A DNA stretch of 64,000 bases, taken from a virus. The notes under the pieces were generated by a model. That model had not been told where the DNA came from, searched no databases, and saw only the letters and a program-made list of their open reading frames with translations. Location: the UHGV virus genome UHGV-0021337. The stretch is one strand, 5' to 3'. Below are positions 3,610-56,921 of this stretch, in pieces; position 1 is the stretch's first letter, and each line of letters begins with the position of its first letter. The position numbers were made by a program, and so were the translations under genes.

Positions 3610-3611
3610 AC

Positions 3612-4525: not shown

Positions 4526-4527
4526 TT

Positions 4528-10082: not shown

Positions 10083-10089
10083 GGTATAT

Positions 10090-10602: not shown

Positions 10603-10632
10603 ATAAACTCAGAAACATATTGTATAACATGT

Positions 10633-11043
10633 ATGAATCTATTAGATAGCACCGTACATAATGACACTGTTGTGTGCAGGTTTATGCGAAATACGTACAA
10701 AGAGGATGAATTTTCAAGAGTTGTCAATGACCTGCTACAAGTACCAAGCTTTGTAATCAAGCTAACATCTTTTGAGATACATTTTAATTATTGTAGCAAA
10801 TATTTTGTACTACCGTTATCTTTATTTGATAAGTTTAGTTCTGTGTATGTTAGTCAAGCTTATAGCCGCGATGACATGGCAGCAAACAAGAACGATGTAG
10901 AAACACTAGTTATTGCACAAAAACATAAACCTAAATCGTTGCATCTACTAGAAAAAGTTAACAATAAATGGTGTGTACCATTACATAGTCAAATACGAAT
11001 TACAAAGTCAAAAGATATCGTATTAGATGACGGCGAATTATAA
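10633..11043 (+). CDS. hypothetical protein
   Basis: 136 aa ORF; TTGTATAACA leader motif upstream; followed by a terminator. Confidence 0.3.
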   Translation: MNLLDSTVHNDTVVCRFMRNTYKEDEFSRVVNDLLQVPSFVIKLTSFEIHFNYCSKYFVLPLSLFDKFSSVYVSQAYSRDDMAANKNDVETLVIAQKHKPKSLHLLEKVNNKWCVPLHSQIRITKSKDIVLDDGEL

Positions 11044-11103: not shown

Positions 11104-11847
11104 ATGAACGAAAACAACATTGAACTTTATTTAGGTAACTGGAAAGAACGATTTAAAACAATTCCCGACAAATCTATTGATTTGATTTATACCGACCCAC
11201 CGTATGATATAGGCATATTTAGACCAGGTTCAGGTGGCAGCGTTAACAACATAATGAAGTTAGATAAGACGTTGTTGCCTATAAATCAAATAACCGAAAC
11301 AAAATACAATCTAACAGAATTCTGCGACGAAGCAGTTCGAGTTATGAAAGATATCAATATTTATATATGGTGTAACAAGCCTCAGATAATTCATTACTTC
11401 AATTACTTTGTTAACGAGTTAGGATGCAAGTATGATATTCTATTCTGGAATAAAACAAATGCTCTACCGACATATTCAAATAAATACTTAACGGATTGTG
11501 AGTATCTATTAGTTTTTCGTAAAGGGAAAGCAGCGTTACATCCAGAATGTTATGAAGATGCAAAAACTGTTTTTCAAAGTCCTATAAATCGAGAAAACAA
11601 GATTTATAAACACCCTAACATAAAACCTCTTGAATTAGTTCTACGTGGTATTAAAAATTCATCAAAGGAAGGCGATATAGTTCTAGACCCATTCATGGGA
11701 AGTGGAACCACTGGCGTTGCATGTAAACAAACCGGCAGGAAATTCATTGGATGTGAGATAAATCCAGAATTCTTTGAAACAGCACAGCAACGAATACTTG
11801 GAACTGAGTATCAAGTTACGTCTACCAAAGGAGGTTTGTGGGATTGA
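11104..11847 (+). CDS. DNA methyltransferase, beta-class (N6-adenine or N4-cytosine)
   Basis: Motif IV IYTDPPYDIG precedes motif I FMGSGTTGVAC (beta order); no restriction enzyme nearby. Confidence 0.7.
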   Translation: MNENNIELYLGNWKERFKTIPDKSIDLIYTDPPYDIGIFRPGSGGSVNNIMKLDKTLLPINQITETKYNLTEFCDEAVRVMKDINIYIWCNKPQIIHYFNYFVNELGCKYDILFWNKTNALPTYSNKYLTDCEYLLVFRKGKAALHPECYEDAKTVFQSPINRENKIYKHPNIKPLELVLRGIKNSSKEGDIVLDPFMGSGTTGVACKQTGRKFIGCEINPEFFETAQQRILGTEYQVTSTKGGLWD

Positions 11848-19372: not shown

Positions 19373-20085
19373 AAAAGTATTTTTGTTTCGGAGACGTACA
19401 CAGTTTTTATACTGAACTCAAAGCTTCATTAGAAACTGCAGGATATGATAAAAATAACAAAGACCATATAATTGTAAGTTGTGGTGACCTTCTAGACAGA
19501 GGCAATGAGTCAATAGAATGTCTAAACTTTGTTAATTCTCTTCCTAAAAATAGGAAAATCTTGATTAGAGGTAATCACGAAGACTTACTAGAAGAGTGTA
19601 TAGATAGAAAAGAGTTCTTATCACATGATTTGCATAACGGGACTCTAAAAACCATCTTTCAACTGTGTGGTAAAGATGACTCTGAATTTTGGTTTAATGA
19701 TAACTATAAAATTGTATTTGACCTTATAAAACAATGCAAGCCCTTGTATAAATACTTGAATAGTTTACAAGATTACGCAGAAGTTGGTCCATACTTATTT
19801 GTTCATGGATGGTTTCCTTTATGTTTAGATTGGACACCCGAAGCTTGGAATAAAGCAAGGTGGTTGAATGGTATGGCTCAATGGCAAACAGGCCAACGCT
19901 ATCCTGAAAAAACAGTTGTTTGTGGACATTGGCATACTAGTTGGGGAAATAGCAAACTTCATAACATCGGAGTTGAATGGGGACAAGATGCATCGTTTGA
20001 ACCTTTTGTTGATGAAGGCATAATTGCCCTAGATGGTTGCGTTGCATATTCTAAAACAATAAATGTAGTTGTATTGGAGATATAA
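19369..20085 (+). CDS. PPP-family Ser/Thr protein phosphatase or ApaH-like metallophosphatase
   Basis: GDVHS, GDLLDRG, RGNHE signature motifs. Confidence 0.6.
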   Translation: MKKYFCFGDVHSFYTELKASLETAGYDKNNKDHIIVSCGDLLDRGNESIECLNFVNSLPKNRKILIRGNHEDLLEECIDRKEFLSHDLHNGTLKTIFQLCGKDDSEFWFNDNYKIVFDLIKQCKPLYKYLNSLQDYAEVGPYLFVHGWFPLCLDWTPEAWNKARWLNGMAQWQTGQRYPEKTVVCGHWHTSWGNSKLHNIGVEWGQDASFEPFVDEGIIALDGCVAYSKTINVVVLEI

Positions 20086-20797: not shown

Positions 20798-21065
20798 AGA
20801 TGTTGCAAAGATACTAAAAATTGATAACTTTAACAGTAATGCTAGTGGCGATTCCATAACATACACGCTTGACACAGACAACGATTTTGGTTCAGTTTAT
20901 ACTGTATTAGAATCAAACGATGATTTTCAAGAATCACAAGATAACTATATGTTGAATCCTACGATAGCCAACCTTGAATATGTATATAATAATGATTATA
21001 GAATTGAGTTGAAAGGAAATTTTGACTCGAACACATATTCAGTAACAATTACGGAGAAACAATGA
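20790..21065 (+). CDS. hypothetical protein
   Basis: 91 aa ORF. Confidence 0.3.
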   Translation: MIEDVAKILKIDNFNSNASGDSITYTLDTDNDFGSVYTVLESNDDFQESQDNYMLNPTIANLEYVYNNDYRIELKGNFDSNTYSVTITEKQ

Positions 21066-21718
21066 ATATAATAACAGACATCGAAAAACTGTCAAACAGA
21101 TGTGATGAAGTTCTTGATTTAAGAAAAGAGAATAAAATAGTTCAACAAATAATCTTAGCTCTTAAGTCTAAGATTAGAGAAGATAAACTTGTAGGTCTAG
21201 CCGCTAACCAGCTCGGGTTCGATAAAAGAATAGTTGTTGTCGCATTTGGAGACGATTTAAGGACTTTCATAAATCCTATAATATCAAATGCAGAAGGATT
21301 AACTGTGTCAATTGAAACCTGTCCAAGTTTACCTGACAAGAAATTTTTGCGTTTACGAAACCAGAAAGTTTCCGTAACATATACAGACCCTCTCGGTAAA
21401 ATACTGACTGCAAAAGATTTGATTGGTAAAGCTGCGTTTGTAATGCAAGAACTCATAGAACACTTAGATGGAGTAGTTCTTTCGGATATAGGTATGGAAC
21501 TAGAAAAAGATTTTGACGAAGCGCCTATCGAAGAAAAAGAAGAGCTAATAAAAGCATATTGTGACACAATGGATGTAAAATTACGTGATGTTAAGAAAGA
21601 AATCGAAGACACTCCAGAACTAAAGAAAATTTCCGATGCTGCTAATTTAATAAATAAAATTCAAACAGGCAATGTTAAAGTAGAGCTTGTTGACAAGAGT
21701 ATAAAGAAAGCCAAATAA
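21062..21718 (+). CDS. def: peptide deformylase-like protein with a diverged metal/catalytic motif
   Basis: PDF motif 1 GLAANQLG and motif 2 ETCPS are present; motif 3 reads QELIEHLDG instead of QHEIDHLNG; acidic/Lys-rich C-terminal tail. Confidence 0.45.
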   Translation: MNIITDIEKLSNRCDEVLDLRKENKIVQQIILALKSKIREDKLVGLAANQLGFDKRIVVVAFGDDLRTFINPIISNAEGLTVSIETCPSLPDKKFLRLRNQKVSVTYTDPLGKILTAKDLIGKAAFVMQELIEHLDGVVLSDIGMELEKDFDEAPIEEKEELIKAYCDTMDVKLRDVKKEIEDTPELKKISDAANLINKIQTGNVKVELVDKSIKKAK

Positions 21719-29456: not shown

Positions 29457-31955
29457 ATGGCAGGATCATTGTGGGGCGAGAGTTTCGAGATTCCTGAAAC
29501 TCCAAAAGTTGTTAAAAAAGTACTTGAGAAAGTAAATCATCCGAAAGATACAAAAGTTTCAGTTACAAAGACTATTAAATCTAACAAAGTTTCCGACAGA
29601 GATAAGTTGGTTTTAATTCGTGAAAATGTCAACAGAATTTTAGGCAAGTATGGTGATGATACTCAGTTAATAAAAACAAGAGAAGAGTTAACAAAGTACA
29701 TTGACTTTGCAATAAATTGTAGTGAGATAGCAATCGATACAGAAACAGATAATAGTTTGGACCCGATAACGTGTAAGTTAATGGGTGCGTGTATCTATTC
29801 TCCTGGACTTAAAAATGTTTATATTCCTGTAAATCACGTAGATATAAATACTCGTGAACGATTTGATTGGCAGCTTACAGAGGCAGATATCAAAGAAGAA
29901 TTTGACCGTTTAACAGCTGCCAAAACAAAAGTCATAACGCACCATGGAAAGTTCGATTATGAAGTTCTAAAAATGACTACAGGTTATGTAATGTCTGTTT
30001 ATTGGGATACTCTTGTTGGTGAAAAAATACTTGATGAAAACAAGCATGAATACGGCTTGAAACATCTTTATAGAGATAAATTTGACCCCGAACAAGAAAA
30101 GTATGACATAGAAGAATTGTTTGAAGGTGTCGAGTATGCAATAGTGGAGCCTGAGTTGTTTGCGTTATATGCAGCAACAGATGCTTACATGACTTACAAG
30201 TTATATAAATGGCAATTAGAACAATTTGACATTCCTGACCATAGCAGAATTAAGAATTTATTTCTTAGCATTGAAATGCCTGTCTTACAAGTTTCCGCAG
30301 AAATGGAACTTGCAGGTATATGCTTAGATCAAGAATATGCAAAGAGGTTAAGTGCTAAGTACGCAAAGAAGCTTGAAGATATTGACGAAAAAACAGAAAC
30401 GGAAGTTGCTAAATACGAAGACATCATATCTCAGTGGCGATTAACTACAGACGCAAACGAACATCCTATCAAGAACGGTAAGATGCAGAGGTCAAAAAGT
30501 GAACAATTAAAGTTTCCTGTAAACCTTGATAGTCCAACACAGCTCGCTATCTTATTGTATGATGTTCTTAAATGTGGTGTTGTAAATAAGAAAAAGCCCA
30601 GAGGAACTGGAGAAGAAGAACTTACAGCTATTTATGCAAAGTACAAGATAGAACTTTGTAACATAATACTAGAGAGAAGAGGTCTTCTTAAGTTGATTAC
30701 AACATATATAGATAAACTTCCACAGTGTGTAAATCCAGCAGACGGAAAACTCCACGCTAAGTTTAATCAGCTCGGCGCGGGCACAGGCAGGTTTAGTTCT
30801 AGTGACCCAAATCTTCAAAACATTCCGTCTCACGAAAAATCAATAAGAATGTTATTCGAAGCAAGTCCAGGGTGTTGCCTTTGTGGTGCGGATTTCTCGG
30901 CCCAAGAACCTCGTCTTTTAACACAGTTCAGCCAGGATTCTAAGATGCTTAACGCATACAAAGAAGGAAAAGACTTGTATGCAATAATAGCTCAACAAGC
31001 CTTTCATAATGGATACTGGGATAACATGGAGCATTACGAAGATGGTTCTCCTAATCCAGAAGGCAAGAAAAGACGTGGTATCGCAAAAACTTTGCTCTTA
31101 GGAATAATGTACGGAAGAGGTTGTGCATCTATTGCAGACCAAATAGGGTGTAGTATTCCCGAAGCTCAAAAAATCATTGATACATTCTTCGAAAGTTTTC
31201 CTAAAGTAAGGGATTGGGTGACTAAAACAGAACAAGATGCTAAAAAACTAGGTTATGTTGAAGACTATTGGGGACGTAGAAGACGACTTCCTGATATTAT
31301 GAAGCCTAAGTATACAATAACTGCTAAGGGTGAAGACACATCTATTTCAAAAGATTTCAACCCGTTGTTAGGTGCATTAGGTCTCGTTAAAAATACACAG
31401 GGCACATTGACTGAAAAATGGCAGAATGCATTGTCAAAAATGAAAGGTCGTAAAGAGTACGAGCAGATAAAATTGAACGCTGCAAAAGAAGGTGTGACGA
31501 TAATCGATAATGGTGCATTTATAGCACAAGCAGAAAGGCAGTGTGTAAATGCACGTATTCAAGGTTCTGCTGCAACGTTAACTAAACTAGCAATGATTGA
31601 AGTATTCCACGATGAAGAACTTAGAACTCTTGGATTTAAACTTTTACTTGCAGTTCACGACGAGTTGATTGGAGAATGCCCGATTGAAAACGTGAAAAAA
31701 GCAGCTGAACGTTTGTCTTATGTTATGGTTAATGCTGGAGTTAAGAATAACGTCGATACACCTATGAAGTGTGATGCAGAAATAGAGGACCATTGGTATT
31801 TCAACGAATATAAAACATTGATTAGGAAGGAATACGCAAAATATATTAGTGCAGGAGATAGCAAAGAAGTTGCGTGGAGCAAACTTTGTGAGGAGCATTG
31901 TGAATCAACTCCTGAGCAGTTAAAAATAATTCTTGAAAGCGAGGAGGTAGCGTGA
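29457..31955 (+). CDS. polA: DNA polymerase I, family A, with 3'-5' exonuclease domain
   Basis: Motif A GADFSAQEPRLL, motif B RRGIAKTLLLGIMYG, motif C LLAVHDEL; N-terminal exonuclease signatures. Confidence 0.85.
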   Translation: MAGSLWGESFEIPETPKVVKKVLEKVNHPKDTKVSVTKTIKSNKVSDRDKLVLIRENVNRILGKYGDDTQLIKTREELTKYIDFAINCSEIAIDTETDNSLDPITCKLMGACIYSPGLKNVYIPVNHVDINTRERFDWQLTEADIKEEFDRLTAAKTKVITHHGKFDYEVLKMTTGYVMSVYWDTLVGEKILDENKHEYGLKHLYRDKFDPEQEKYDIEELFEGVEYAIVEPELFALYAATDAYMTYKLYKWQLEQFDIPDHSRIKNLFLSIEMPVLQVSAEMELAGICLDQEYAKRLSAKYAKKLEDIDEKTETEVAKYEDIISQWRLTTDANEHPIKNGKMQRSKSEQLKFPVNLDSPTQLAILLYDVLKCGVVNKKKPRGTGEEELTAIYAKYKIELCNIILERRGLLKLITTYIDKLPQCVNPADGKLHAKFNQLGAGTGRFSSSDPNLQNIPSHEKSIRMLFEASPGCCLCGADFSAQEPRLLTQFSQDSKMLNAYKEGKDLYAIIAQQAFHNGYWDNMEHYEDGSPNPEGKKRRGIAKTLLLGIMYGRGCASIADQIGCSIPEAQKIIDTFFESFPKVRDWVTKTEQDAKKLGYVEDYWGRRRRLPDIMKPKYTITAKGEDTSISKDFNPLLGALGLVKNTQGTLTEKWQNALSKMKGRKEYEQIKLNAAKEGVTIIDNGAFIAQAERQCVNARIQGSAATLTKLAMIEVFHDEELRTLGFKLLLAVHDELIGECPIENVKKAAERLSYVMVNAGVKNNVDTPMKCDAEIEDHWYFNEYKTLIRKEYAKYISAGDSKEVAWSKLCEEHCESTPEQLKIILESEEVA

Positions 31956-32218
31956 CTTTTACATTAGATGGCGTAGAGGCAATAGGACTAGTAGCTACAG
32001 TCATTCTTGTTGCTTCTATGTGTTTCAATACTAAAACTTTTATCGGAACATTACTTATGCGAGTTTTGAATCTTGTATGTAGTGTTGTGTGGATTATATA
32101 TGCCTGTGCTCATACGCCAGGACTTTTATCAACTTTGGTTTCAAACATTTTGTTAACAATTATCAATTTGTATTTTCTTATCATTGCCGTAAAAAATAAA
32201 GATAACTTTGGTAAGTAA
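31952..32218 (+). CDS. small 3-TM membrane protein, SemiSWEET/PQ-loop-like fold candidate
   Basis: 88 aa, three hydrophobic helices; layout resembles SemiSWEETs (TM3 LVSNILLTIINLYFLIIAVKNK) but lacks the PQ dipeptide. Confidence 0.3.
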   Translation: MTFTLDGVEAIGLVATVILVASMCFNTKTFIGTLLMRVLNLVCSVVWIIYACAHTPGLLSTLVSNILLTIINLYFLIIAVKNKDNFGK

Positions 32219-32242
32219 ACAAAATAGTTTGTATACATATAT

Positions 32243-32302
32243 AGAGGGATGTTCAGTTGTCTACTCCCGCCCTCTTAAAAATAAATTAAAACGGAGACTA
32301 TT
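32243..32302 (+). ncRNA. preQ1 riboswitch-like element in the transporter leader
   Basis: AGAGGG-21 nt-CCCTCT hairpin followed by the A-rich tail TAAAAATAAATTAAAAC and SD GGAG; the loop CTCC can pair with GGAG; compare B. subtilis preQ1-I AGAGG...CCCUCUAUAAAAAACUAAGG; sits just upstream of a COG1738 gene. Confidence 0.5.
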
Positions 32303-33022
32303 ATGAAGAAATTATTAAACGAATACAAAATTTTATTACGAAATGTACCTAGTCTAATTGTTGGCTTGTTTATTGTTGCAGTTGTTAGCTGTAATATACT
32401 TGCAAATAAAACAATTGTAAGTGTTGGAGATTGGTTCGCACTAGATGGAGGAATTGTTGTTAGTTGGCTTATATTCTTGTGTATGGATATGGTAACTAAA
32501 CGATTCGGACCAAAAGCAGCAACGCGTTTAACTTTAGTTGCAGCAGGTGTTAATTTACTTGTGTGTGGTTTATTCTACATTGTTAGCGTTATACCTTCTT
32601 CAGCTGATGACTATACAGCACTAAATGGAATTTTAGGCGGTACTTGGTTTATTCTGATGGATAGTACAATAGCATTTATTGTCTCAGGAATAATCAACAA
32701 TTTTGTAAACGCTGGTATAGGTAAAGCGTTCAGGAAAAATCCAGACGGAAAACTTGCATATGTTTCAAGAACTTATGTATCTACGTTTATTGGACAATTT
32801 ATTGACAACTTAATTTTTGCAGTTTTAACCTTTATGGTATTCAGCCCTATTTTCTGGGACGGATTTAGTTGGACATTCTTACAGTGTGTAACGTGTTCTT
32901 TAACAGGAGCAATTGCTGAATTATTGATGGAAATCATCTTCTCGCCTCTTGGATATAAAATTTGCAATAAATGGAAAGCAGAAGGCGTTGGCAATGAATA
33001 TCTTGAATTGGTAAAAGCCTAG
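32303..33022 (+). CDS. yhhQ: YhhQ/COG1738 (DUF165) queuosine-precursor (preQ0/preQ1) transporter
   Basis: 239 aa polytopic membrane protein; motifs CMDMVTKRFG and QFIDNLIFAVLTF align with E. coli YhhQ. Confidence 0.65.
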   Translation: MKKLLNEYKILLRNVPSLIVGLFIVAVVSCNILANKTIVSVGDWFALDGGIVVSWLIFLCMDMVTKRFGPKAATRLTLVAAGVNLLVCGLFYIVSVIPSSADDYTALNGILGGTWFILMDSTIAFIVSGIINNFVNAGIGKAFRKNPDGKLAYVSRTYVSTFIGQFIDNLIFAVLTFMVFSPIFWDGFSWTFLQCVTCSLTGAIAELLMEIIFSPLGYKICNKWKAEGVGNEYLELVKA

Positions 33023-33033
33023 TTCATACAGAG

Positions 33034-33070
33034 ACGACACGAAATACGGCATCGTGTCGTTTTCTTTTTG
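33034..33070 (+). terminator. rho-independent terminator after the transporter gene
   Basis: ACGACACGA / TCGTGTCGT 9-bp stem followed by TTTCTTTTT. Confidence 0.6.
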
Positions 33071-33199
33071 ATTTATTCTTTGATTACCTTTATAATAAAT
33101 GTATAAGTTAGGAGAAAGCTAACTTGAACATTGAAGAAATTAAAAAATCTAATCAAACAACCTGAAAAGGTGAATTTATGAGTAGAGTTGGAGGTAGAT

Positions 33200-33460
33200 A
33201 TGAACTGGAAAAAAGAATTTATCAAATTATTAGAATCGAGAGCCTTTGCGACTAATTCAGAAATCGATGATTACGCTGACGAACACAATTTGCCAGTAGC
33301 CGACGTTTGGCAGTGTTTCTCGGAATATATGGAAGATTGTTTAATTAAACAGTCAATCGGAACACCTTGCGAAGGTTGCAAATACGTTGTTCAAACAAAA
33401 GGCTCGATACCTTGTTATGAGTGTTGTCGAAATAAGGCTGATTTTTACAAAAAGATATAA
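33200..33460 (+). CDS. hypothetical small Cys-containing protein
   Basis: ATG 33200 lies behind GGAGG; the track start 33188 is TTG. Confidence 0.3.
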   Translation: MNWKKEFIKLLESRAFATNSEIDDYADEHNLPVADVWQCFSEYMEDCLIKQSIGTPCEGCKYVVQTKGSIPCYECCRNKADFYKKI

Positions 33461-33489
33461 CAGAAGACACGTTTCATTAGGGGGTAATT

Positions 33490-33651
33490 ATGCGTAAAGA
33501 ACACGACGGGAAGATTTACTTCCCACATTATGAAGAAATTTTGCTCGAGGATGCTTTGACCGCGATGGTTAAAATTATGCAGGAAACTGGACATTTGTAT
33601 TACGTTGAATGGAACGGAAAGTTCTATTACAGCGACGAGGTAAAAATATGA
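33490..33651 (+). CDS. hypothetical small protein (53 aa)
   Basis: RBS GGGGGT 4 nt upstream; ATGA-coupled to the next ORF; not in the supplied track (under 60 aa). Confidence 0.25.
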   Translation: MRKEHDGKIYFPHYEEILLEDALTAMVKIMQETGHLYYVEWNGKFYYSDEVKI

Positions 33652-33851
33652 GATTCAACGGACAAAATATGATATACACTGCAGACGACGAATTTCCCAA
33701 CTGTAGCGTGTGTGAAAAACAAGACTTCTGTTATTTATGCATGGAGTGCGGTCCAAGCTTTGCGTGGCAACACTACGAAAGATCTGAAGACAATGCTGAG
33801 CTGAATCGTCTGTACAAGGAGCTTGAGAGGTACAAGAAACAATATGATTAA
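33648..33851 (+). CDS. small zinc-finger protein
   Basis: CSVCEK ... CMECG; the coupled start at 33648 is preferred over the track start 33609. Confidence 0.3.
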   Translation: MRFNGQNMIYTADDEFPNCSVCEKQDFCYLCMECGPSFAWQHYERSEDNAELNRLYKELERYKKQYD

Positions 33852-34029
33852 ATACTACACCGAGCGTGAGCTTGATTACAACGAAATTGAAACTCCATCC
33901 TCATATCCAAAAGAAGTAGTCCTAGACAAAATCAAAAATCTAGATAAACGAGATATAAAGTTTAAGCCTGTACTCGATCCTCAGTGTGTTATAACTACAA
34001 CTTGGACTATAAGTAATGACGATAACTAA
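33844..34029 (+). CDS. hypothetical small protein
   Basis: ATGA coupling; the track start 33823 lies inside the upstream gene. Confidence 0.3.
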   Translation: MIKYYTERELDYNEIETPSSYPKEVVLDKIKNLDKRDIKFKPVLDPQCVITTTWTISNDDN

Positions 34030-34081
34030 TTGATTGTTTATATAAATTATATTATAATAAGCATATAAGAGAGGTGTATAT

Positions 34082-34306
34082 ATGAATAACGAGAAACACG
34101 AAGTAACAAAAGAAGAAGTTGGAGAACAGATCTGGGAACTTTTCAAAGGTGACTCTAAAAAACATAGAACGCATAACTATGAAAAAACATATGATGGAAT
34201 TAGTCAATGTTTCACGTTACGTAATAGTAAACGATATTTAATAACACAGAATTCAAAAGATAACAACGATATAAAAGTCGAAAGATATATAAAAAATCAT
34301 CACTAA
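34082..34306 (+). CDS. hypothetical small protein
   Basis: 74 aa ORF with RBS AGAGAGGTG. Confidence 0.3.
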   Translation: MNNEKHEVTKEEVGEQIWELFKGDSKKHRTHNYEKTYDGISQCFTLRNSKRYLITQNSKDNNDIKVERYIKNHH

Positions 34307-34320
34307 GGTTTAAGTTAATT

Positions 34321-34524
34321 ATGAACTGTCCTAGATATATAAAAGACAAAATTCTTTTACGAGCAAAATACGCTATGAAATTTATGAAATTAGATTGCGA
34401 TATATGCAATTGGATGCAGGCTAATAATATAGATAGTGAATACTCTCTTCCCGGATATGTAGAAAGTCTGTGTGGTGGTTACAGTGCAGCTGAAGAAACA
34501 CTTCAAGACATTGAAAATTCATAA
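34321..34524 (+). CDS. hypothetical small Cys-containing protein
   Basis: 67 aa ORF. Confidence 0.3.
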   Translation: MNCPRYIKDKILLRAKYAMKFMKLDCDICNWMQANNIDSEYSLPGYVESLCGGYSAAEETLQDIENS

Positions 34525-34579
34525 AATTCGTGTTAATTAGACATAAGTTATTGTATAACAAATACAAACAGGAGGTATT

Positions 34580-35530
34580 ATGCCATATTATTTTTCTGGA
34601 GCATATAATCAGGCCTTGAAAATACGGTTAAATGTTGACCAACTATTCTCAGTGTATCATGAGAAAAAATTGATTGAAAAAACAATCTTATATAAAAGAG
34701 AACATCCTGAATATACCGCAAAAATTTTCTTAGACAGTGGAGCTTTCACGCATTTCCAGAATATGAAGAAAAAGGGAATCACGCTTACTGACAACGACAT
34801 AAAGGACTACACAGATAAATATCTTTCTTTCTTAAATGAATGGGGCGAAGACTTGGAGTGCTTTGTTGGCGTCGATAGTGTACCAAATCCAGAACACGTT
34901 GACCCAACGTTTGTTCATAAAACTTGGGCAAATTATTTGTATATGTGGGAAAGGTTAAAACCGAGTATTCGTCATAAATTGATTCCTGTTTTCCACTTTG
35001 GGGAAGATTTCAATGAATTGAAGAAGTGGCTTGAATATAGACATCCAGATGGAAGTAAAGTTGAGTATCTTGGTCTTGCAATTTCGTTGGAAGGAAATCG
35101 AAAAGTAAGAATTGCTTGGGGACAAGAAGCCGAAAGAATAATCAAAGCATCTTCTAATCCAAATGTTAAGACTCACGCGTTTGGTGTTGGGGTTAAGAGC
35201 GTTATGGAAAATATAAACGTAACTTCGACGGATGCCACGAGTTGGTTGAAGCGTGCAGCATATGGAATGATTTCGGTAGACGATAAGACTGTATATATAA
35301 GTGACTTGCAAGAACAGAAGTCCGACGGCAGACATCTTAAAGATAAGTCACTAGCTTATCAAGAAGAAGTATTTAAGAAAATAAAAGAAAAAGGCTTTAC
35401 GCTTGAGCAGTTAGCTACAGACAATTACGCGAGAGCGGAATTTAACATTTTGGATACGTTAGAATGGTATAATAAATTAGAAGCATCAAAACGTATCGAA
35501 AAGGGCGCAAAGGTTGATTTAGGTTGGTAA
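34580..35530 (+). CDS. dpdA: DpdA-like DNA-guanine transglycosylase (TGT superfamily)
   Basis: TGT substrate-pocket motif KIFLDSGAFTHFQ (compare LDSGGFQ); HAFGVGV; TSTDATSWLKRAAYG matches the catalytic Asp region FDCVxPTRxARxG; no Zn-binding Cys cluster, as in DpdA. Confidence 0.55.
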   Translation: MPYYFSGAYNQALKIRLNVDQLFSVYHEKKLIEKTILYKREHPEYTAKIFLDSGAFTHFQNMKKKGITLTDNDIKDYTDKYLSFLNEWGEDLECFVGVDSVPNPEHVDPTFVHKTWANYLYMWERLKPSIRHKLIPVFHFGEDFNELKKWLEYRHPDGSKVEYLGLAISLEGNRKVRIAWGQEAERIIKASSNPNVKTHAFGVGVKSVMENINVTSTDATSWLKRAAYGMISVDDKTVYISDLQEQKSDGRHLKDKSLAYQEEVFKKIKEKGFTLEQLATDNYARAEFNILDTLEWYNKLEASKRIEKGAKVDLGW

Positions 35531-37428
35531 TCTCAGACGAGATGAAACAAGATGTTGTTGAGTTCTATAAAACAAACTCAACAACAATTACTTGTGAACA
35601 ATTTCATATAACTTGGGACAGGCTTAAAAAGATACTGGCTGAATATGATGTAGCTCCACACGATGCAAAAATTAATAGAGAACTGACATCGTTATACAGA
35701 TTCGGAGTTACTAATGCAGGAAAATCTGTAGAGTTACAGGAAAAAGCAAAACAAACAACAGCGTCAAGATATGGTAGTTCAAATTACAGGAATCACGACA
35801 AAGCTCGTCAGACCCGTATAAACAAAGATGGCTCATTAGAAGCATCATATAGAAAAGCTCAGAAAAGACAAGAAGAAACGAACTTGGCTAAGTATGGAGT
35901 TAAAAGTTATTTTCAAACTGAATTATTTCAAGAACAGTCTAAGGATACTTGCTTAGAACGTTACGGCAAAGAGTTCTATCGTCAAACTCAAGAATATCAG
36001 GACCGCGTTAAAGAAACATCTTTACAAAAATATGGAGTAGAACACTATACTCAATCTGACCAGTATAAAACAAAAGTAAGAGATACTTGCCAAGAAAGAT
36101 ACGGCAACGATTCGTGGTTTGGCTCGGAAGCTGGTAAGAATGCTATCAAAGACAGTTGTTTACAGAGGTATGGTGTTTCTAACGCTATGCAGTCGTATGA
36201 AGTGATAACGCGAGCAAAAGAAAAGCTTGTTCAGAAATATGGTGTTGACAACGTTATGAAATCTTCAGATATCAGAAGTAAGCAAGCACAGTCGAGTCGT
36301 TGTTCTAATTTTGAGCAAGAAGTTCAGCATTGGTTGTCAAATAGAAACGTTGCTTTTACTACTCACTATGTTATTAAACAAGGAGGTTTGATTCACGAGT
36401 TTGATATTGCTTTATACGAAGGTAATCAGCTCGTTTGTCTAGTAGATTGTGACGGGACTTACTATCATGGATACAACGACGATATAAATGGTAGATCTGT
36501 AAACCCATACATAGATGAATATAGAATGCTGCTTGTTCCTAAAGATGTTTTATTTCTTGTGTTACTTCCAGACACTTGGCAAGAGCAGCTTGAAGAATAC
36601 TTTAATAACAAACAAAGTTACGAGCAAGTCATATTCACCTGGTGTAAATCTATAGACTTTCCATATCCTAACATAGACAATGTTGAGGCTTCCTATAAGT
36701 CACTGGTAAAGGCAGATGTGAGTAAATTTTCGATGAACGCTCGATATGGAATGCGAGTTATCGACGCTTTTCATAAATCTATCTGGAAAGCAAATAGAAA
36801 AGGTTTCTTGAGCCCTTATGCTGCTTGGCGTGATGAAGAATTGCTACGCAGATGTATCAATAATCGTATAATTTATAAAGGTACTAACTTAGACCCTTCC
36901 AAGGTTCTATACGGTTTTAGTGCTGCAAAGATTGCTCCTAAAGTGTCGATATTTAATCCTTATCTGGCTAAGTATTTGATAAATAAGTACTTGAACGAAT
37001 TTACAACTGTTTTTGACCCTTGCTCTGGATATAGCGGCAGACTTTTAGGCGCAACATCATTGGGTAAACATTATGTAGGACAAGATATAAATGCTACAAC
37101 AGTTGAAGAATGTTTACAAATACGTGATAAGCTCAATCTCGACGCTGAATTATCTGTTGTTGATTCTTTGAGTACTACAGGAAGTTATGAGGCTTTATTT
37201 ACCTGTCCTCCTTATAGTGACAAAGAAAACTGGAACCAAGAAATTTTGAATCTAACATGCGATGAATGGATTACTCGATTTATAGAAAACTATAAATGTA
37301 AAAGATATTTATTCATTGTAGACAAAACAGAAAAGTATAAAGATTATATTGTTGAAGAAATAGAGAATAAATCACATTTTAGTGAGAATATTGAATATGT
37401 TATATTGATAAATAGAGGTAATATATGA
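35524..37428 (+). CDS. multidomain protein: about seven 23-aa [KR]YG repeats, a PD-(D/E)xK (Vsr/DUF559-like) nuclease-like domain, and a Dam-like (D12-class) methyltransferase with CPPY in place of DPPY
   Basis: Repeats aa 70-250 (AKYGV..., ERYGK..., QKYGV..., ERYGN..., QRYGV..., QKYGV...); EFDIAL...LVDCDGTYYH; motif I VFDPCSGYSGRLLG and motif IV FTCPPY; overlaps the dpdA stop by 4 nt. Confidence 0.5.
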   Translation: MVISDEMKQDVVEFYKTNSTTITCEQFHITWDRLKKILAEYDVAPHDAKINRELTSLYRFGVTNAGKSVELQEKAKQTTASRYGSSNYRNHDKARQTRINKDGSLEASYRKAQKRQEETNLAKYGVKSYFQTELFQEQSKDTCLERYGKEFYRQTQEYQDRVKETSLQKYGVEHYTQSDQYKTKVRDTCQERYGNDSWFGSEAGKNAIKDSCLQRYGVSNAMQSYEVITRAKEKLVQKYGVDNVMKSSDIRSKQAQSSRCSNFEQEVQHWLSNRNVAFTTHYVIKQGGLIHEFDIALYEGNQLVCLVDCDGTYYHGYNDDINGRSVNPYIDEYRMLLVPKDVLFLVLLPDTWQEQLEEYFNNKQSYEQVIFTWCKSIDFPYPNIDNVEASYKSLVKADVSKFSMNARYGMRVIDAFHKSIWKANRKGFLSPYAAWRDEELLRRCINNRIIYKGTNLDPSKVLYGFSAAKIAPKVSIFNPYLAKYLINKYLNEFTTVFDPCSGYSGRLLGATSLGKHYVGQDINATTVEECLQIRDKLNLDAELSVVDSLSTTGSYEALFTCPPYSDKENWNQEILNLTCDEWITRFIENYKCKRYLFIVDKTEKYKDYIVEEIENKSHFSENIEYVILINRGNI

Positions 37429-39109: not shown

Positions 39110-39832
39110 ATGGCAACAGCATTAGTTACAGGAACAAGCTCGGGAGTGGGTAAAGCAACAGCTCTTAAACTTCTAGCTATGGGAATAGATGTTATAGGTC
39201 TTGATTGGAAAGATAGTACAATTCATAGACCTCATTATTTTCACTTCAAATGTGATGTAAGCAAGTATGAAGAACTTCCTTCGCTTGACAGTTTAGGAGG
39301 CATTGAGTACATTGTTAACAATGCAGGAATAGTAACACCTAAAGCAGACGCTATCGCAGTTAATCAGATTGGATATATAAATGTATTGCAAAAATATGCG
39401 GATAACAATCCGAAGTTAAAAAGCATTGTAATTATTGGTTCATCTGCCTCGGTCAAGGGCTACGACAATCGAGAATATTGCACTTCGCAAGGTGCAAGAG
39501 ATGCATTAACCAAGTGGGCCGCTAACAACTATGGTAACGACCCTAGACACGTTTTAGTCAACGAACTTCGTCTCGATGGTATTGTAGCAGCAGACCCGGA
39601 AAAGGGTATTGAAGGTACTACTTTGGAACCTGAGCTTTATGCAGCAGATGGATTGATGGACCAAATAGCTAATCTGAGCATTTTAAAAAGGTTGGCTACT
39701 GTCGAAGAGATTGCAGAATGGATTTATTTTATTCTTGTAGTTAACACAATTGTAACTGGGCAGATAATAGATGTTGACGGAGAACTCATGGGAGCTTTCA
39801 AATTTGTTCCTTACAAAGGGTGGAATGACTAG
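39110..39832 (+). CDS. short-chain dehydrogenase/reductase (SDR) family protein
   Basis: Rossmann TGTSSGVGKA, NNAG motif; active-site region reads SS...YCTSQ (YxxxQ instead of YxxxK). Confidence 0.6.
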   Translation: MATALVTGTSSGVGKATALKLLAMGIDVIGLDWKDSTIHRPHYFHFKCDVSKYEELPSLDSLGGIEYIVNNAGIVTPKADAIAVNQIGYINVLQKYADNNPKLKSIVIIGSSASVKGYDNREYCTSQGARDALTKWAANNYGNDPRHVLVNELRLDGIVAADPEKGIEGTTLEPELYAADGLMDQIANLSILKRLATVEEIAEWIYFILVVNTIVTGQIIDVDGELMGAFKFVPYKGWND

Positions 39833-39833
39833 T

Positions 39834-40715
39834 ATGAAGATAATGTGCTTAACACCTTGTCTGATGTTAGATAATACCAGAGCAATAAACGCTAAGTCAA
39901 TACAAAATAACATAGATGTTCTTAAACTCGATGAATATGTAATCTATGACCAGATGTTTGCACCTAGCGATTTTAACTCGAAATGTACATATATAGGTCA
40001 CGCAGATAAACGAATGGGCTGGGCAGTACCAAGAAATGCTTTACTTAAGTATTTTTATGATTCTGACTTTGACTATGCGTTTTTTATTGATGCAAATTCT
40101 GTTCCGTCTAAACCTACGCTAAATGATTTACTGAGCATAATAAGAAGTCTTAGAGCAGGTGAGTTATCTTTCTGCGACGCTATTTTTAGCACATTAGGTA
40201 TGTGGGTAAGTCAAGAGCGTATAATGTGCAAATCCTTACCTGACCACCTCGAAAATGTTCATCTAGTACCCGCTCGTTGTGATAAAAGTTACAACTGGAT
40301 GCACGGATTATTTGTAAAGAATTTCAAGAAGTATTATGGCCAGGAATTCTATATGGATGAAAGATGTCATGTATTAGAAGGAACTCCAGAAGATGTATTC
40401 TTTGCTCGTCTATTAAGGAAGTATGCAAATTGTTGGGTTGCTCCTACAGTGGTAATCAACAAACCTTCTTCTAATGCTTCTTGTACAATGGCAAATGGTA
40501 AAGGTACTTATGATTATCCGCCTGTATTGTTTGATAAAGAAGATGAATACATTTCTGAACTCTCTCAGAAAAACGGATATCATCACTGTAATAGAAGTGT
40601 ACGACCTAGCGAAGTTGTTATACCTCGCGTTTCGGAGTATAAAGATTTAGTTACTCCGTATAAATCAAGACAAAAGAAAGTACAAGAAACTTCAAGAAAA
40701 CAAGTACTTTTTTAA
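39834..40715 (+). CDS. hypothetical protein, possibly glycosyltransferase-like
   Basis: Start MKIMCLTP directly after the SDR stop; FFIDANS is DXD-like; track start 39771 overlaps the SDR gene. Confidence 0.35.
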   Translation: MKIMCLTPCLMLDNTRAINAKSIQNNIDVLKLDEYVIYDQMFAPSDFNSKCTYIGHADKRMGWAVPRNALLKYFYDSDFDYAFFIDANSVPSKPTLNDLLSIIRSLRAGELSFCDAIFSTLGMWVSQERIMCKSLPDHLENVHLVPARCDKSYNWMHGLFVKNFKKYYGQEFYMDERCHVLEGTPEDVFFARLLRKYANCWVAPTVVINKPSSNASCTMANGKGTYDYPPVLFDKEDEYISELSQKNGYHHCNRSVRPSEVVIPRVSEYKDLVTPYKSRQKKVQETSRKQVLF

Positions 40716-52999: not shown

Positions 53000-53221
53000 A
53001 TGAATGATGCTGTGAATCATCCTTCGCATTACACTTTTGGAAAGTACGAAACTATACAAGTTATTGAGGATTGGAAACTTCCTTATCATCTTGGAAATGC
53101 AGTTAAATACATATCTAGAGCTGGACGTAAAGACCCTACAAAAACTATTGAAGATTTGAAGAAGGCTCGCTGGTATTTGAATAGATATATTAAGTTATTA
53201 CAAAAAGAGGCAAAGAATTGA
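53000..53221 (+). CDS. conserved small phage protein (SHY...GNAVKYISR motif; resembles a DUF3310-type family)
   Basis: ATG 53000 follows AAGGAG; 73 aa; coupled to thyX. Confidence 0.4.
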   Translation: MNDAVNHPSHYTFGKYETIQVIEDWKLPYHLGNAVKYISRAGRKDPTKTIEDLKKARWYLNRYIKLLQKEAKN

Positions 53222-53886
53222 ACGTAGAACTTATTTCATACACTAAAGACCCAGTTAACATGATAGAGACCGCAGCGTCTACTTGTTATGACTCTGAACC
53301 TACTAATGGTAAGATAATGAATCATTGTTATAAATCTGGTCATCATTCAGTATTAGAGTTTGCAGAATTTACATTTAAGATAACAGGTGTAAGTAGAGCT
53401 TTAACACACCAACTTGTTAGACATAGATGTGCAAGTTATGCACAAAGAAGCCAACGTTATTGTAAAGAAGATGGATTTAAGTATGTTATTCCACAATCAA
53501 TAAGAAATAATCCTGATTTGTTGTACTCATATGAAATGTTAATGAATCAAATTAAACTTATGTATAACAATTTGATACTGAGTAACATACCTAATGAAGA
53601 TGCTCGCTACATTCTTCCTAATGCGTGCGAAACTGAAATATGCGTTAAGATGAATTTAAGAGAGTTAATTCATTTCTGTAACGAACGGTTGTGTACCTGC
53701 GCGCAATGGGAAATCCGTCAACTTGCACGTAAGATAAAAGAATGTGTTGAAAGCGTTAGCCCAGAATGTGCAAAGTATCTTGTACCTAAATGTGAAGCTC
53801 ACAGTCCGTATAACTTCTGCACCGAAACAAAGAAGAGAAGTTGTGGGAAACATAAAGTAATATCAGAGGTTATTCAAAATGTATGA
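53218..53886 (+). CDS. thyX: flavin-dependent thymidylate synthase ThyX
   Basis: ThyX signature VRHRCASYAQRSQRY (RHRxxxxxxxSxR). Confidence 0.75.
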   Translation: MNVELISYTKDPVNMIETAASTCYDSEPTNGKIMNHCYKSGHHSVLEFAEFTFKITGVSRALTHQLVRHRCASYAQRSQRYCKEDGFKYVIPQSIRNNPDLLYSYEMLMNQIKLMYNNLILSNIPNEDARYILPNACETEICVKMNLRELIHFCNERLCTCAQWEIRQLARKIKECVESVSPECAKYLVPKCEAHSPYNFCTETKKRSCGKHKVISEVIQNV

Positions 53887-54256: not shown

Positions 54257-54556
54257 ATGGCAAAAGTAGTAGCAAAAGAATTCAGAAATGATAAAGGATA
54301 CAAGTCGGTCGAATCACTTGACAGCTTGTTAAGACGCTTTAAGCGTAAAGTTGCAAACGAAGGTATTATTCAGTCCTTAAAGGAACAGGAATACTACGTC
54401 AGTCACGGACAGCAACGCAGACTTGAAAAAGAAGCCGCTGTTAGACGTATTCAACGTAACAATGCTAAACAGCAACTTAAAGAAGACGTTTTAGCTGGAA
54501 AAGTCCATTTAAGTAAAACTCAAACGAAAAAGCTTGGACTTGGAGGTAAACGATGA
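54257..54556 (+). CDS. rpsU: ribosomal protein S21 homologue with a basic C-terminal extension
   Basis: LDSLLRRFKRKVANEGIIQSLKEQEYYVSHGQQRRLEKEAAVRR matches the bS21 core (LRRFKR ... EfYEKP ... R.K). Confidence 0.55.
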   Translation: MAKVVAKEFRNDKGYKSVESLDSLLRRFKRKVANEGIIQSLKEQEYYVSHGQQRRLEKEAAVRRIQRNNAKQQLKEDVLAGKVHLSKTQTKKLGLGGKR

Positions 54557-55501: not shown

Positions 55502-55714
55502 ATGAATTCGACATTTGAAATAACATATGTAAATGAAAGTGGTTGTCCTTGTACAGCTATTATTCACGATCAAGATTACTATTACTGGTCACATAACAGA
55601 GACTTGACTGGAAAATTCTACAAAGTAAGAAGAACTATTGTGGGAAAATTCTTAGATAAGCTTAAAAGTTGTACCAACATTGTAATAAAGGAGGTTTGCA
55701 CGAATGCTAAATAA
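55502..55714 (+). CDS. hypothetical small protein
   Basis: 70 aa ORF with RBS GGAGGAAATATG. Confidence 0.3.
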   Translation: MNSTFEITYVNESGCPCTAIIHDQDYYYWSHNRDLTGKFYKVRRTIVGKFLDKLKSCTNIVIKEVCTNAK

Positions 55715-56921
55715 ACGTGGTGAACGCGAACTTGCGTATATAGCTCAAGTGACTGACATTGTTCCTATTGAAGGAGCAGACAAAGTAGAACTTGCTTATG
55801 TAAATGGATGGACTGTAATGGTCCGTAAAGGTCAGTTCAAAGTAGGTGATCCTTGCGTGTACTTTGAAATAGACTCCAAAGTCCCTGAAACTGAACAGTT
55901 TGAATTTCTGAGCAAATATAAGTACAAAATTAAGACTCAAAGATTTATAAAAGGTAAAGTTCTTAGTCAAGGTCTTATAATGACCTTAGAAGAATTAGGG
56001 CTGCAAGACTGCAAGGTTGGCGACTTTGTAACTGAACGACTCGGAGTAACTTACTACGAACCGGAAGATAACACTCGTAAAGCAGACAACAAGAAACTTG
56101 CACAGATAAAACTTGAAAGGTTTATAGAACGTTGGACACGTAAGCATAGAATACTTTCAAAGATAAAGTTTATTGTAAAACTTCGCAAAAAGATTTGGTT
56201 GAGAACGTATTTCAAGAATCAGAAAAAGAAAAAGACCGATTGGCCTTACTGGGTTGTTAAAACTGACGAAGAAAGGTGTCAGAATCTACCAAAGCTTTTC
56301 ATGGATAATGACAAAGAATATATGGGTACAGAAAAGATAGACGGAACTTCAACAACGTTTACAATGTATCAGGCTCGAAAGAAAAAGCGTAGAGCAATAG
56401 TTTGTTCAAGAAATGTAGTATTCAACACTCCTGAAAAAGAAGAAAGAAATTACTACAAGGATACAGACGGTAATGTTTATCTGGAGATGTACGAAAAATA
56501 TAACATAGAAAAAGTACTTAACTATGTACTAGATGAACACCCAGAATATGAATTTATAACTATCCAAGGCGAAAGTTACGGTGGAACGATTCAAAAACGA
56601 AATTACGGTCCGGAACACAGACTTGCAATATTCAACTACATATATAAAGAAAATGGTCAAGCTCCTGTTCGGCTTAATCCTGTTGAAATGAATGAGCAAA
56701 TTGATTGTCTAAATCAACGTTTGAATACTGCTTTAGAAACTGTCCCACTTCTTTACATCGGATTTAAGCTTCCTGATACTTGCGAAGAACTTCTTAAAAT
56801 TGCGGAAGGGCCTTCAAGAATTGATGGAAAACCTCGTGAAGGAATTGTTTTTAGAGACAACAACGGACAGGAAAGTTTTAAGGCTGTCTCAAATTCCTTC
56901 TTAGAAGCTTATCACAACTAG
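55704..56921 (+). CDS. ATP-dependent RNA ligase-like nucleotidyltransferase (an ATP-dependent DNA ligase is not excluded)
   Basis: Lysine motif I TEKIDGTST (KxDG); downstream ITIQGESYGG; N-terminal OB-like extension. Confidence 0.5.
   Translation: MLNKRGERELAYIAQVTDIVPIEGADKVELAYVNGWTVMVRKGQFKVGDPCVYFEIDSKVPETEQFEFLSKYKYKIKTQRFIKGKVLSQGLIMTLEELGLQDCKVGDFVTERLGVTYYEPEDNTRKADNKKLAQIKLERFIERWTRKHRILSKIKFIVKLRKKIWLRTYFKNQKKKKTDWPYWVVKTDEERCQNLPKLFMDNDKEYMGTEKIDGTSTTFTMYQARKKKRRAIVCSRNVVFNTPEKEERNYYKDTDGNVYLEMYEKYNIEKVLNYVLDEHPEYEFITIQGESYGGTIQKRNYGPEHRLAIFNYIYKENGQAPVRLNPVEMNEQIDCLNQRLNTALETVPLLYIGFKLPDTCEELLKIAEGPSRIDGKPREGIVFRDNNGQESFKAVSNSFLEAYHN

Follow-up and report, generated by a model that had tools for sequence, protein, structure and literature searches.

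How could a phage that encodes a DpdA-type DNA (7-deaza)guanine transglycosylase obtain the modified base if it carries none of the genes for making it? This question is raised by the virus genome UHGV-0021337, of which a stretch of 64,000 nucleotides was analysed (hereafter the window, to which the coordinates refer). Every gene of the window is on the + strand, and three of them, located in the block of replication genes just after the DNA polymerase gene, form the core considered here: yhhQ, coding for a homolog of queuosine-precursor transporters, dpdA, and a gene for a protein of the short-chain dehydrogenase/reductase (SDR) family. The absence of synthesis genes, taken together with the presence of an importer, DpdA and a reductase-like SDR, suggests that the phage probably scavenges a queuosine-type precursor. 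Uptake-fed DNA modification, which was published as a hypothesis in 2019 and is unproven, is our best reading of the locus. That these genes form a salvage-fed 7-deazaguanine DNA-modification module of a large gut phage, in which modified DNA would be the outcome, we regard as having about an even chance. The elements of the core are as follows.

32243-32302, + strand: structured 5' leader of yhhQ, 60 nt (recognised by conservation and a joint alignment)
32303-33022, + strand: yhhQ, YhhQ/QPTR (COG1738, Vut_1) queuosine-precursor transporter homolog, 239 aa (Pfam PF02592)
34580-35530, + strand: dpdA, DpdA-type DNA (7-deaza)guanine transglycosylase, 316 aa (phrog_887 and AlphaFold2 (AF2) fold)
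39110-39832, + strand: SDR-family protein, third conserved core gene (adh_short, E 3e-14, 53.4 bits against a cut-off of 26.6)

The transglycosylase and the transporter

The product of the open reading frame (ORF) 34580-35530 matched the phage DpdA family phrog_887 with an E-value of 2.5e-38, and tblastn with this protein retrieved 150 phage records annotated as DpdA or 'queuine tRNA-ribosyltransferase'. Among isolates, the DpdA of the Streptococcus phages Dp-1 and MS1 matched best (32% identity) and those of the 9g-like 'Queuovirinae' came next, the E-values for these phages ranging from 4e-32 to 1e-14. A large protein collection contained 256 homologs in two forms of ~312-320 aa and ~395-405 aa, the longer form having an ~80-aa insertion. 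The features DSGAF (D52), GVDSVP (D99), PVFHxGED, THAFGVGV (H199) and STDATSW (D218) were invariant in 29 sequences, and motif resemblance, rather than superposition, suggests that D52 and D218 may correspond to the catalytic Asp pair (in the DSGG and DxxD regions) and H199 to the conserved His of tRNA-guanine transglycosylase (TGT) and of the 9g DpdA. The family alignment had no conserved Cys/His cluster and hence no zinc site of the CxCxxC...H TGT type. No match to DpdA was obtained with Pfam (including the TGT family), NCBIfam or the PADLOC Dpd models (E ≤ 0.01), and sequence searches of the PDB returned nothing, so that a fold search was needed. When the AF2 model (pLDDT 87.9, pTM 0.83) was compared with the PDB by Foldseek, the top match was the T. 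maritima TGT 2ash (E 1.4e-5, TMq 0.59), and the bacterial DNA preQ0 insertase DpdA, 7ui4, was also matched (E 7e-3, TMq 0.52). The preliminary description of this locus, which had been made from the sequence alone, had called the protein DpdA-like with a TGT fold, an LDSGAF motif and no zinc site, and each of these features was borne out, the motif being invariant in the form FLDSGAF: the ORF does not code for a zinc-type tRNA TGT. On the strength of sequence and predicted fold we accept it as a phage DpdA-family transglycosylase.

The ORF 32303-33022 matched PF02592 (Vut_1) with 94.1 bits (E 1.5e-26; gathering cut-off 27.2), which assigns its product to the YhhQ/QPTR family of transporters, presumably with a queuosine precursor as substrate. 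Members of this family vary in what they carry, and the Chlamydia protein transports queuine (PMC11130926). As had been proposed, the gene has a terminator of its own, and a promoter-like site follows it directly.

~33033-33070, + strand: intrinsic terminator, hairpin and T-run, GACGACACGA...TCGTGTCGTTTTCTTTTT
33068-33096, + strand: promoter-like site TTGATT-17-TATAAT, found by sequence scan

Absence of precursor synthesis genes

When the larger ORFs between 19 and 63 kb were scanned with Pfam, genes for replication, recombination and nucleotide metabolism were revealed, and no QueC, QueD, QueE, FolE or QueF was detected in the window. Proteins identical to both window ends are encoded on ENA contigs of 144,491 and 164,672 bp; the genome thus measures ~145-165 kb and the window is less than half of it. 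For this reason the search was widened with a close relative, the IMG/VR contig 3300045988_170194 (128.9 kb; YhhQ 95% and DpdA 86% identical), which was walked from 61.5 to 122.5 kb. The queries comprised hidden Markov models (HMMs) of QueC, QueD, QueE and FolE, made from MS1, Dp-1 and two metagenomic phages, together with the QueF-like and QueT proteins of Dp-1. In every ORF of the window, of both 10-kb flanks, of the walked part of the relative and of five other relatives, the best match to these pathway genes had an E-value of 0.24 and no match exceeded 8 bits. The earlier statement that FolE, QueC, QueD and QueF candidates are missing therefore holds, and the close relative extends it to nearly the whole genome. 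We consider the absence of a phage-encoded preQ0/preQ1 pathway to be well supported by these searches.

A radical-SAM protein is encoded at 57752-58690; it matched phrog_16999 'Fe-S oxidoreductase' (E 2e-41) and, weakly, a viperin-like (pVip) PADLOC model. As an analogue of QueE or of a queuine lyase it was discarded, having no similarity to QueE and only generic radical-SAM and viperin-like matches.

A conserved core of YhhQ, DpdA and SDR

The SDR gene had been missed in the preliminary description, as had the fact that most of the genome lies outside the window. Every relative examined (loci L004-L010, L015, L120 and L296-L302, on gut-metagenome contigs, human and other, of 75-165 kb) had the order PolA - Vut_1 - (variable genes) - DpdA - SDR, and judging from these sequences the core conserved across this gut-phage family is YhhQ, DpdA and SDR. 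The SDR gene begins before the dpdA stop in L296 and L299, an overlap which is consistent with translational coupling; in the window the same junction holds a gene for a 634-aa protein (see below). The SDR protein contains the NAD(P)-binding motif TGxxxGxG in the form VTGTSSGVGKA. The phage SDR clade has YxxxQ (EYC(T/S)SQG) in place of the catalytic YxxxK and a 10-aa insertion, whereas the SDRs linked to yhhQ in bacteria keep YxxSK.

The scanning of 185,579 species genomes uncovered YhhQ relatives with 57-69% identity to the phage protein in 456 stretches, essentially all of them from metagenome-assembled genomes (MAGs) of gut and rumen Clostridia and Bacilli. When 80 of these stretches were inspected, an SDR homolog started less than 200 nt downstream of yhhQ in 76, and two of the four remaining loci are cut by the contig end. 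DpdA was present in none of the 80 loci, and none of them revealed a third conserved partner of the pair, which is also frequent in metagenome contigs. With these bacterial SDRs the phage protein shares 35-48% identity (E down to 1e-36); its best PDB match is FabG with an E-value of only 9e-8. Two of the three core genes appear to derive from a bacterial yhhQ-SDR operon. Our literature search found no paper that ties an SDR to YhhQ/QPTR or describes such an operon, and its recurrence in gut and rumen Firmicutes suggests a missing queuosine-salvage enzyme.

Some relatives carry further genes near the core. In L296-L298 a gene of the nucleoside 2-deoxyribosyltransferase family (4385-4888, 63 bits) lies between Vut_1 and dpdA, and its product might free the base from an imported nucleoside. 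After the SDR gene, relatives encode a weakly glycosyltransferase-like protein of ~297 aa, a CofD-family protein and an NTP_transf_3 nucleotidyltransferase (L008 11976-15306; L120 9552-12885; L299; L301 7155-10506), which may point to an additional modification pathway. Of these three genes, just the glycosyltransferase-like one (39771-40715) is present in the window.

The leader of yhhQ

In the structure proposed for the leader, 32243-32248 pair with 32270-32275 to form the helix P1, which continues through the mismatches A32249.G32269 and U32250.C32268 and is closed by the pair G32251-C32267 beneath a 15-nt loop, UUCAGUUGUCUACUC (32252-32266). An A-rich tail (32276-32292) ending in AAAAC leads to the Shine-Dalgarno (SD) sequence GGAG (32293-32296). 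The motif occurs in one copy per genome, always directly 5' of yhhQ, and there is one in the window. The 60-nt stretch is fully conserved where the flanks are unrelated. Twelve loci have a 31-nt core without any difference; one of them is L008, whose YhhQ has no more than 51% identity and whose flanks show no relation. The core sequence GAGGGAUGUUCAGUUGUCUACUCCCGCCCUC...AAAAUAAAUUAAAACGGAGACUA is shared unchanged by the window and the relatives L002/L010/L037, L004-7, L038 and L008/9/13. Some copies close the outer helix with A-U, others with U-A. The leader is a genuine, constrained RNA element.

Other yhhQ genes are preceded by canonical-looking preQ1-I aptamers with terminators. Against the Rfam family RF00522, which has a gathering score of 39 bits, two of these leaders reached 31.1 (L083) and 22.8 bits (L019), both below that score. 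Many of the leaders examined in bacterial yhhQ-SDR operons are preQ1-I-like, and that of L083 with its terminator is one of them. A graded series of yhhQ leaders, shading into canonical preQ1-I riboswitches, has loops of 15-21 nt that start with UUC(G/A) and end with (A/U)UC, followed by an A-rich tail ending in AAAAC and then by the SD. Among 15 leaders of 'type B/F', all cells of P1 (100%) were paired, with covariation at four positions, and a covariance model of our own built from these 15 (R1) found related phage leaders in L120 (39.6 bits), L011 (34.7), L301 (28.5, E 2.7e-4) and L029 (21.6). L301 belongs to the same phage family (DpdA ~68% identical), and by eye its leader falls between type B and the window type. 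MAFFT placed the window-type leader in register with those of L301, L120 and type B. In the joint alignment of ten sequences 83.9% of cells pair, compared with 62% after shuffling, and five pairs change on both sides; the window-type rows have two mismatched positions in P1. In this proposed register, U32252, U32253, C32266 and AAAAC (32288-32292) would be the nucleotides of preQ1-contact type. An alternative register with a 'GGGA/UCCC' inner helix was dropped, as L301 and the joint alignment favour the outer P1 plus the G-C closing pair.

Rfam searches with the whole window and with 501-nt and 86-nt stretches gave no match to the leader, and on the 86 nt RF00522, RF01054 and RF02680 failed even at E ≤ 10, which for RF00522 corresponds to a score below about 12 bits; R1 missed the window leader as well (8.5 bits, E 5). 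The folding energy was ordinary in comparison to shuffled sequence (z = 0.47). In the putative helix P2 of an H-type pseudoknot, CUCC of the loop and closing pair (32264-32267) can pair with the SD GGAG (32293-32296), with a complementarity no better than that of shuffled loops (p = 0.996), and because of this test the loop-SD pairing was dropped as evidence. Each of these results, like the two mismatches of upper P1, speaks for an ordinary conserved hairpin for translation control or mRNA stability, or for a protein-binding site, in place of a metabolite sensor, and we treat this as a serious, though the less probable, explanation of the leader. It is opposed by the full conservation of the 60 nt between unrelated flanks, by the in-register alignment with leaders at the same position that score as preQ1-I-like, and by a proposed register that keeps UU after P1, C before the 3' strand of P1 and the AAAAC tail (read from the sequence via PMC11625349). 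What had been called a preQ1-riboswitch-like leader is thus real and strongly conserved, but every Rfam preQ1 model fails on it; control of the transporter by a riboswitch is plausible and not established, with the alignment chain via L301 as the only tie to the preQ1-I-like leaders. Most likely, the leader is a divergent relative of the preQ1-I-type translational riboswitches, and not a demonstrable member of that family, that would sense a ligand of this kind.

Several recurrent types of yhhQ leaders with P1 covariation and enlarged loops were seen (L042-L129, L018/29/30/32/33, L095-L110): type B UUCGGCCUCUAAAUC, type C ..CCUUGAUCAAC and type D UUUUGUA..GACACC. The examples of types B, C and D that were checked had no Rfam match (for type D this holds at E ≤ 10 too, with 101 nt searched), and these types may be unrecognised preQ1-I subtypes. 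We found no description of preQ1-I-like leaders with enlarged loops, some of them virus-encoded, in the literature searched. Within the window the best match of R1 was at 40633-40680 (17.1 bits, E 0.06), inside the glycosyltransferase-like ORF, and is probably due to chance.

Proposed uptake-fed DNA modification and its alternatives

According to the scheme that we favour, the phage importer would take up a queuosine-family base (preQ1, preQ0 or a related gut metabolite) during infection. Its synthesis would probably be tuned by the leader, which is built like a translational preQ1-I riboswitch. The SDR-like protein may convert or otherwise handle the imported compound, as the bacterial yhhQ-SDR pairing suggests, and DpdA, to judge from its characterised homologs, would swap guanines in the phage DNA for 7-deazaguanine and so protect it from restriction. 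A more far-reaching form of this scheme, which we think rather unlikely, is that Firmicutes and phages share an undescribed salvage step, in which a YhhQ/QPTR importer and a dedicated SDR work under a preQ1-type riboswitch, and that the phage joined this pair to DpdA and has its DNA modified with a gut-derived 7-deazaguanine; the leader would then be a new preQ1-I subtype or a variant with an altered ligand. If so, the base could be, for example, preQ1 made from imported queuine, preQ0 or another Q-family base, and DNA protection would follow gut metabolites.

Several results weigh against uptake-fed modification, among them those obtained with Rfam, R1 and the loop-SD pairing of the leader. 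The transporter narrowly misses the NCBIfam equivalog TIGR00697 'queuosine precursor transporter', reaching 46.8 bits where the cut-off is 50.95. The search for pathway genes covered the close relative save for ~6 kb, and the ~67 kb of the phage genome beyond the window were covered through this relative only. With its catalytic Lys lost, the phage SDR may no longer be a working dehydrogenase, and given the glycosyltransferase-like, CofD and nucleotidyltransferase neighbours in relatives it could belong to another pathway. In addition, two phages that have DpdA only set a precedent: the DNA of Mycobacterium phage Orion is unmodified and that of Salmonella phage 7-11 contains dPreQ0 only in traces (PMC6884629).

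These points feed into three competing explanations. The module could be present with little or no DNA modification, as in Orion and 7-11, or DpdA could have drifted to another substrate or role, and the loss of the SDR Lys and the lack of a match of DpdA to the bacterial DpdA models of PADLOC or to Pfam TGT would fit with that. However, DpdA is strongly conserved (256 homologs), its putative catalytic Asp residues are invariant in the family alignment, and the three-gene core is kept at ~50-65% protein identity, which implies selection; we therefore find a silent module improbable. It would likewise be a surprise to us if the transporter and the SDR were a host-takeover (auxiliary metabolic) pair, copied from the yhhQ-SDR operon of the host, that raises tRNA queuosine and translation, with DpdA using host preQ0/preQ1 or being unrelated to import. 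The 57-69% identity of YhhQ to host-type genes and the existence of the yhhQ-SDR pair as a bacterial operon agree with such a role, the phage encodes ribosomal protein S21, peptide deformylase and a tRNA, all of them related to translation, and the boosting of tRNA queuosine was proposed by Hutinet et al. (2019) for phages with Q genes. Yet YhhQ and SDR flank dpdA in every relative and the dpdA and SDR genes, by their overlap in L296 and L299, appear translationally coupled, which argues for one pathway, and the bacterial loci are devoid of DpdA, which suggests that the phage specifically joined the three genes.

The remaining explanation concerns the base, which could be neither preQ0 nor preQ1: the SDR and the glycosyltransferase-like, CofD and nucleotidyltransferase proteins of relatives may build another or a hypermodified base, e.g. 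queuine or a sugar- or phospho-adduct. The genes for these four proteins are contiguous after dpdA in L008, L120, L299 and L301, the deoxyribosyltransferase-family gene of L296-L298 lies within the locus, YhhQ substrates vary up to the queuine of the Chlamydia protein, and the leader diverges from canonical preQ1 aptamers. Against this, the window phage is without CofD and nucleotidyltransferase, related yhhQ leaders are preQ1-I-like, and generic SDR and glycosyltransferase matches tell nothing of the chemistry, so we consider a different base to be quite unlikely too. Uptake-fed modification with a queuosine-family base such as preQ1 or preQ0 remains the reading that we prefer.

An accessory fusion of a putative nuclease and a methyltransferase at the dpdA junction

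The preliminary description had included in the module a fusion protein encoded by a gene that overlaps the dpdA stop, and had proposed that its methyltransferase further modifies the inserted base to an mdPreQ1-like form.

35524-37428, + strand: 634-aa accessory fusion, overlapping the dpdA stop by 7 nt
~35671-36303 (residues ~50-260), + strand: DUF7487 DNA-binding repeats (PF24308)
~36307-36560 (residues ~262-345), + strand: nuclease-like motif HEFD...LVDCDGTYYHGY
36580-37428, + strand: amino-methyltransferase domain, last 282 residues (AF2 model, motifs)

The overlap, the repeats and the CPPY methyltransferase were all found as described, and the nuclease domain is visible as a motif only. 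The fusion matched DUF7487 with 155 bits (cut-off 27) in 3 stretches, and its PHROG matches, phrog_12131 and phrog_3339, are annotated as 'homing endonuclease'. The HEFD...LVDCDGTYYHGY motif, which we take to be Vsr/DUF559-like, is conserved in N-terminally extended homologs. Residues 253-372 had no Pfam match, the fusion as a whole had no Pfam match to DUF3109, and sequence searches of the PDB with it returned nothing. The methyltransferase domain belongs to a large family of mostly stand-alone phage proteins of ~270 aa with a conserved motif I, FDPCSGYSGR, and a motif IV, TC(P/S/T)PY (TCPPY in the window), in which the Cys is invariant. This motif IV departs from the (D/N/S)PP(Y/F/W) of amino-methyltransferases, and Pfam N6_N4_Mtase reached only 13.6 bits against a cut-off of 26.7. 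The modelled domain (pLDDT 92.9) has a class I Rossmann fold, with Trm11 (m2G, E 4e-8), METTL5 and METTL16 (m6A) and YhhF/RsmD-like proteins as the top PDB matches, and PADLOC gave weak matches of the fusion to Type II DNA methyltransferases.

The distribution of the gene does not follow that of the core. The fusion gene was found in the window and L004-7 only, and is absent from the closest relative (129 kb; L010), from L008 and from L296-L301; L120 has a nuclease-methyltransferase version at the same junction, and DUF7487 genes are frequent in this interval of relatives. In unrelated phages, stand-alone homologs of the methyltransferase lie beside Gp23-type capsid genes, and neither a TGT nor a DpdA gene is called within 7 kb of them. 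A deazaguanine-specific enzyme was therefore rejected on the grounds of gene context. DpdM, the methylase known to act on dPreQ1, is of another family: it is a metal-binding protein of the DUF3109 type, rich in Cys and unique in its fold (PMC10516641). Both are methyltransferase-type genes beside dpdA, but DpdM has the CxxxCxxCC motif of DUF3109, whereas the domain of the fusion is a Rossmann methyltransferase near Trm11, METTL5 and Type II DNA methyltransferases and is not generally linked to dpdA. The proposed formation of mdPreQ1 was thus not supported, a role on the inserted base being the less likely one, and the other role that had been suggested, a self-immunity or targeting module, fits better. 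We read the fusion as a mobile accessory insertion of an endonuclease and a methyltransferase at the dpdA/SDR junction, outside the core module, whose most likely role, unconnected with deazaguanine chemistry, is that of an orphan or self-protecting DNA methyltransferase. A classical N6/N4 DNA methyltransferase is also encoded within the tail/baseplate block at 11104-11847 (PF01555, 126 bits; PADLOC Type II methyltransferase, E 1.6e-43), and the phage thus has at least two DNA-methyltransferase-like genes.

Neighbouring genes and genome context

29457-31955, + strand: family-A DNA polymerase (PolA) gene, directly 5' of the module
31952-32218, + strand: 88-aa small hydrophobic protein, SemiSWEET-like, a recurring cluster partner
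33188-34524, + strand: six small ORFs of 53-90 aa, a variable filler region (from the ORF list)

PolA is followed by the 88-aa ORF, a non-coding leader region of ~85 nt, yhhQ, the terminator, the small ORFs, dpdA and the 634-aa ORF. The anatomy of the 5.5-kb block had thus been described essentially correctly, and overall the observation is largely real and partly confirmed. The small ORFs number six rather than seven and are not conserved among relatives, which have ORFs for 77 and 172 aa, a GDSL lipase, Nuc_deoxyrib_tr or DUF7487 endonuclease genes in the yhhQ-dpdA interval; the six had no Pfam match, and one gave a weak PHROG match (E 0.0042).

The 88-aa protein had been called SemiSWEET-like with three transmembrane segments. 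It is small and hydrophobic, and three segments can be discerned by eye from the hydrophobic sequence rather than by a transmembrane predictor. Membership in the SWEET clan is indicated below threshold only: of six homologs searched against Pfam, four gave matches to MtN3_slv (E 0.0056 at best) and three to Imp-YgjV (E 1.5e-4 at best), none of which reached the cut-off, and the window protein itself had no Pfam match to PF03083 or PF04193. Its homologs adjoin yhhQ or dpdA in L002/4/38, L008, L019 and L014-16.

Upstream of the window the genome encodes T4-like gp13, gp19 and baseplate genes. A megablast search of an isolated-phage collection found no close relative, and the best match of PolA in a complete isolate genome has only 39% identity. 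By gene similarity alone the host is most likely a Firmicute. A homolog of ribosomal protein S21 is encoded at 54257-54556 (PF01165, 53.6 bits; also in L122 at 19622-19846), and the 164-kb contig has a second copy ~9 kb past the window end. Other auxiliary genes are those for peptide deformylase (21062-21718), ThyX (53218-53886), RNA ligase (55704-56921), NAD-dependent DNA ligase (60847-62772) and a tRNA (63598-63666). Homing elements are common among these related phages: L008 has its PolA in two pieces (5212-7931), GIY-YIG lies beside a PolA fragment in L301 (19-1806), a 736-aa structural-region protein in L121 contains an intein (2478-4688), and RecA in L297 has a LAGLIDADG insertion (8796-10969).

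Comparison with known systems

The closest DpdA proteins in isolates are those of Dp-1 and MS1, the clusters of which contain queC-queD-queE-folE, a transporter (Vut_1 in MS1, QueT in Dp-1) and dpdA; in the DNA of Dp-1, dPreQ1 makes up 1.7% of G (PMC6884629). As in the window, the transporter gene lies directly upstream of dpdA and the same replication genes follow, namely DnaN, RecA, dUTPase and the clamp loader. The window phage differs in lacking queC, queD, queE, folE and queF, in having a transporter with its own structured leader and terminator and an SDR coupled to dpdA, and in a genome that is about three times larger, with a T4-like structural module.

In having DpdA without any preQ0 pathway it resembles the 76 DpdA-only phages for which Hutinet et al. 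(2019) proposed host preQ0 or uptake as the source; these authors noted phage YhhQ homologs and found YhhQ uncorrelated with any phage group (PMC6884629). Unlike those phages, the family described here physically links the importer, DpdA and SDR, with a riboswitch-like leader in addition. The combination of a transporter and DpdA without preQ0 biosynthesis genes, pointed out in the preliminary description, is kept in many related gut-phage contigs. To call it undescribed was an overstatement, since the concept is found in PMC6884629 and transporter-dpdA pairs exist in Dp-1 and MS1. The module makes the 2019 hypothesis for 'DpdA-only' phages directly testable and, if confirmed, would be the first worked example of phage DNA modified with a scavenged rather than a self-made 7-deazaguanine. 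The anti-restriction armour of such a phage would then depend on queuosine precursors derived from the diet or the microbiota, which is relevant to gut phage ecology.

With the yhhQ-SDR operon of gut and rumen Clostridia and Bacilli the phage module shares the two protein families, at the identities given above, and preQ1-I-like leaders; it departs from it in the presence of DpdA and in the YxxxQ and 10-aa insertion of its SDR. The leader resembles the bacterial preQ1-I riboswitch of yhhQ (E. coli type III; RF00522) in being short and located 5' of yhhQ and in having P1, a pyrimidine-rich UUC loop, an A-rich tail that contains a conserved C, and an SD next to it (PMC11625349). It is unlike RF00522 in giving no score against that model, in a loop of 15 instead of 12 nt, in the two mismatches of upper P1 and in a P2 that is putative. 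Set beside these systems, what appears to be new is the linked importer, DpdA and SDR module in a large gut-phage family, together with a virus-encoded riboswitch-like leader of the importer gene and a widespread bacterial yhhQ-SDR operon.

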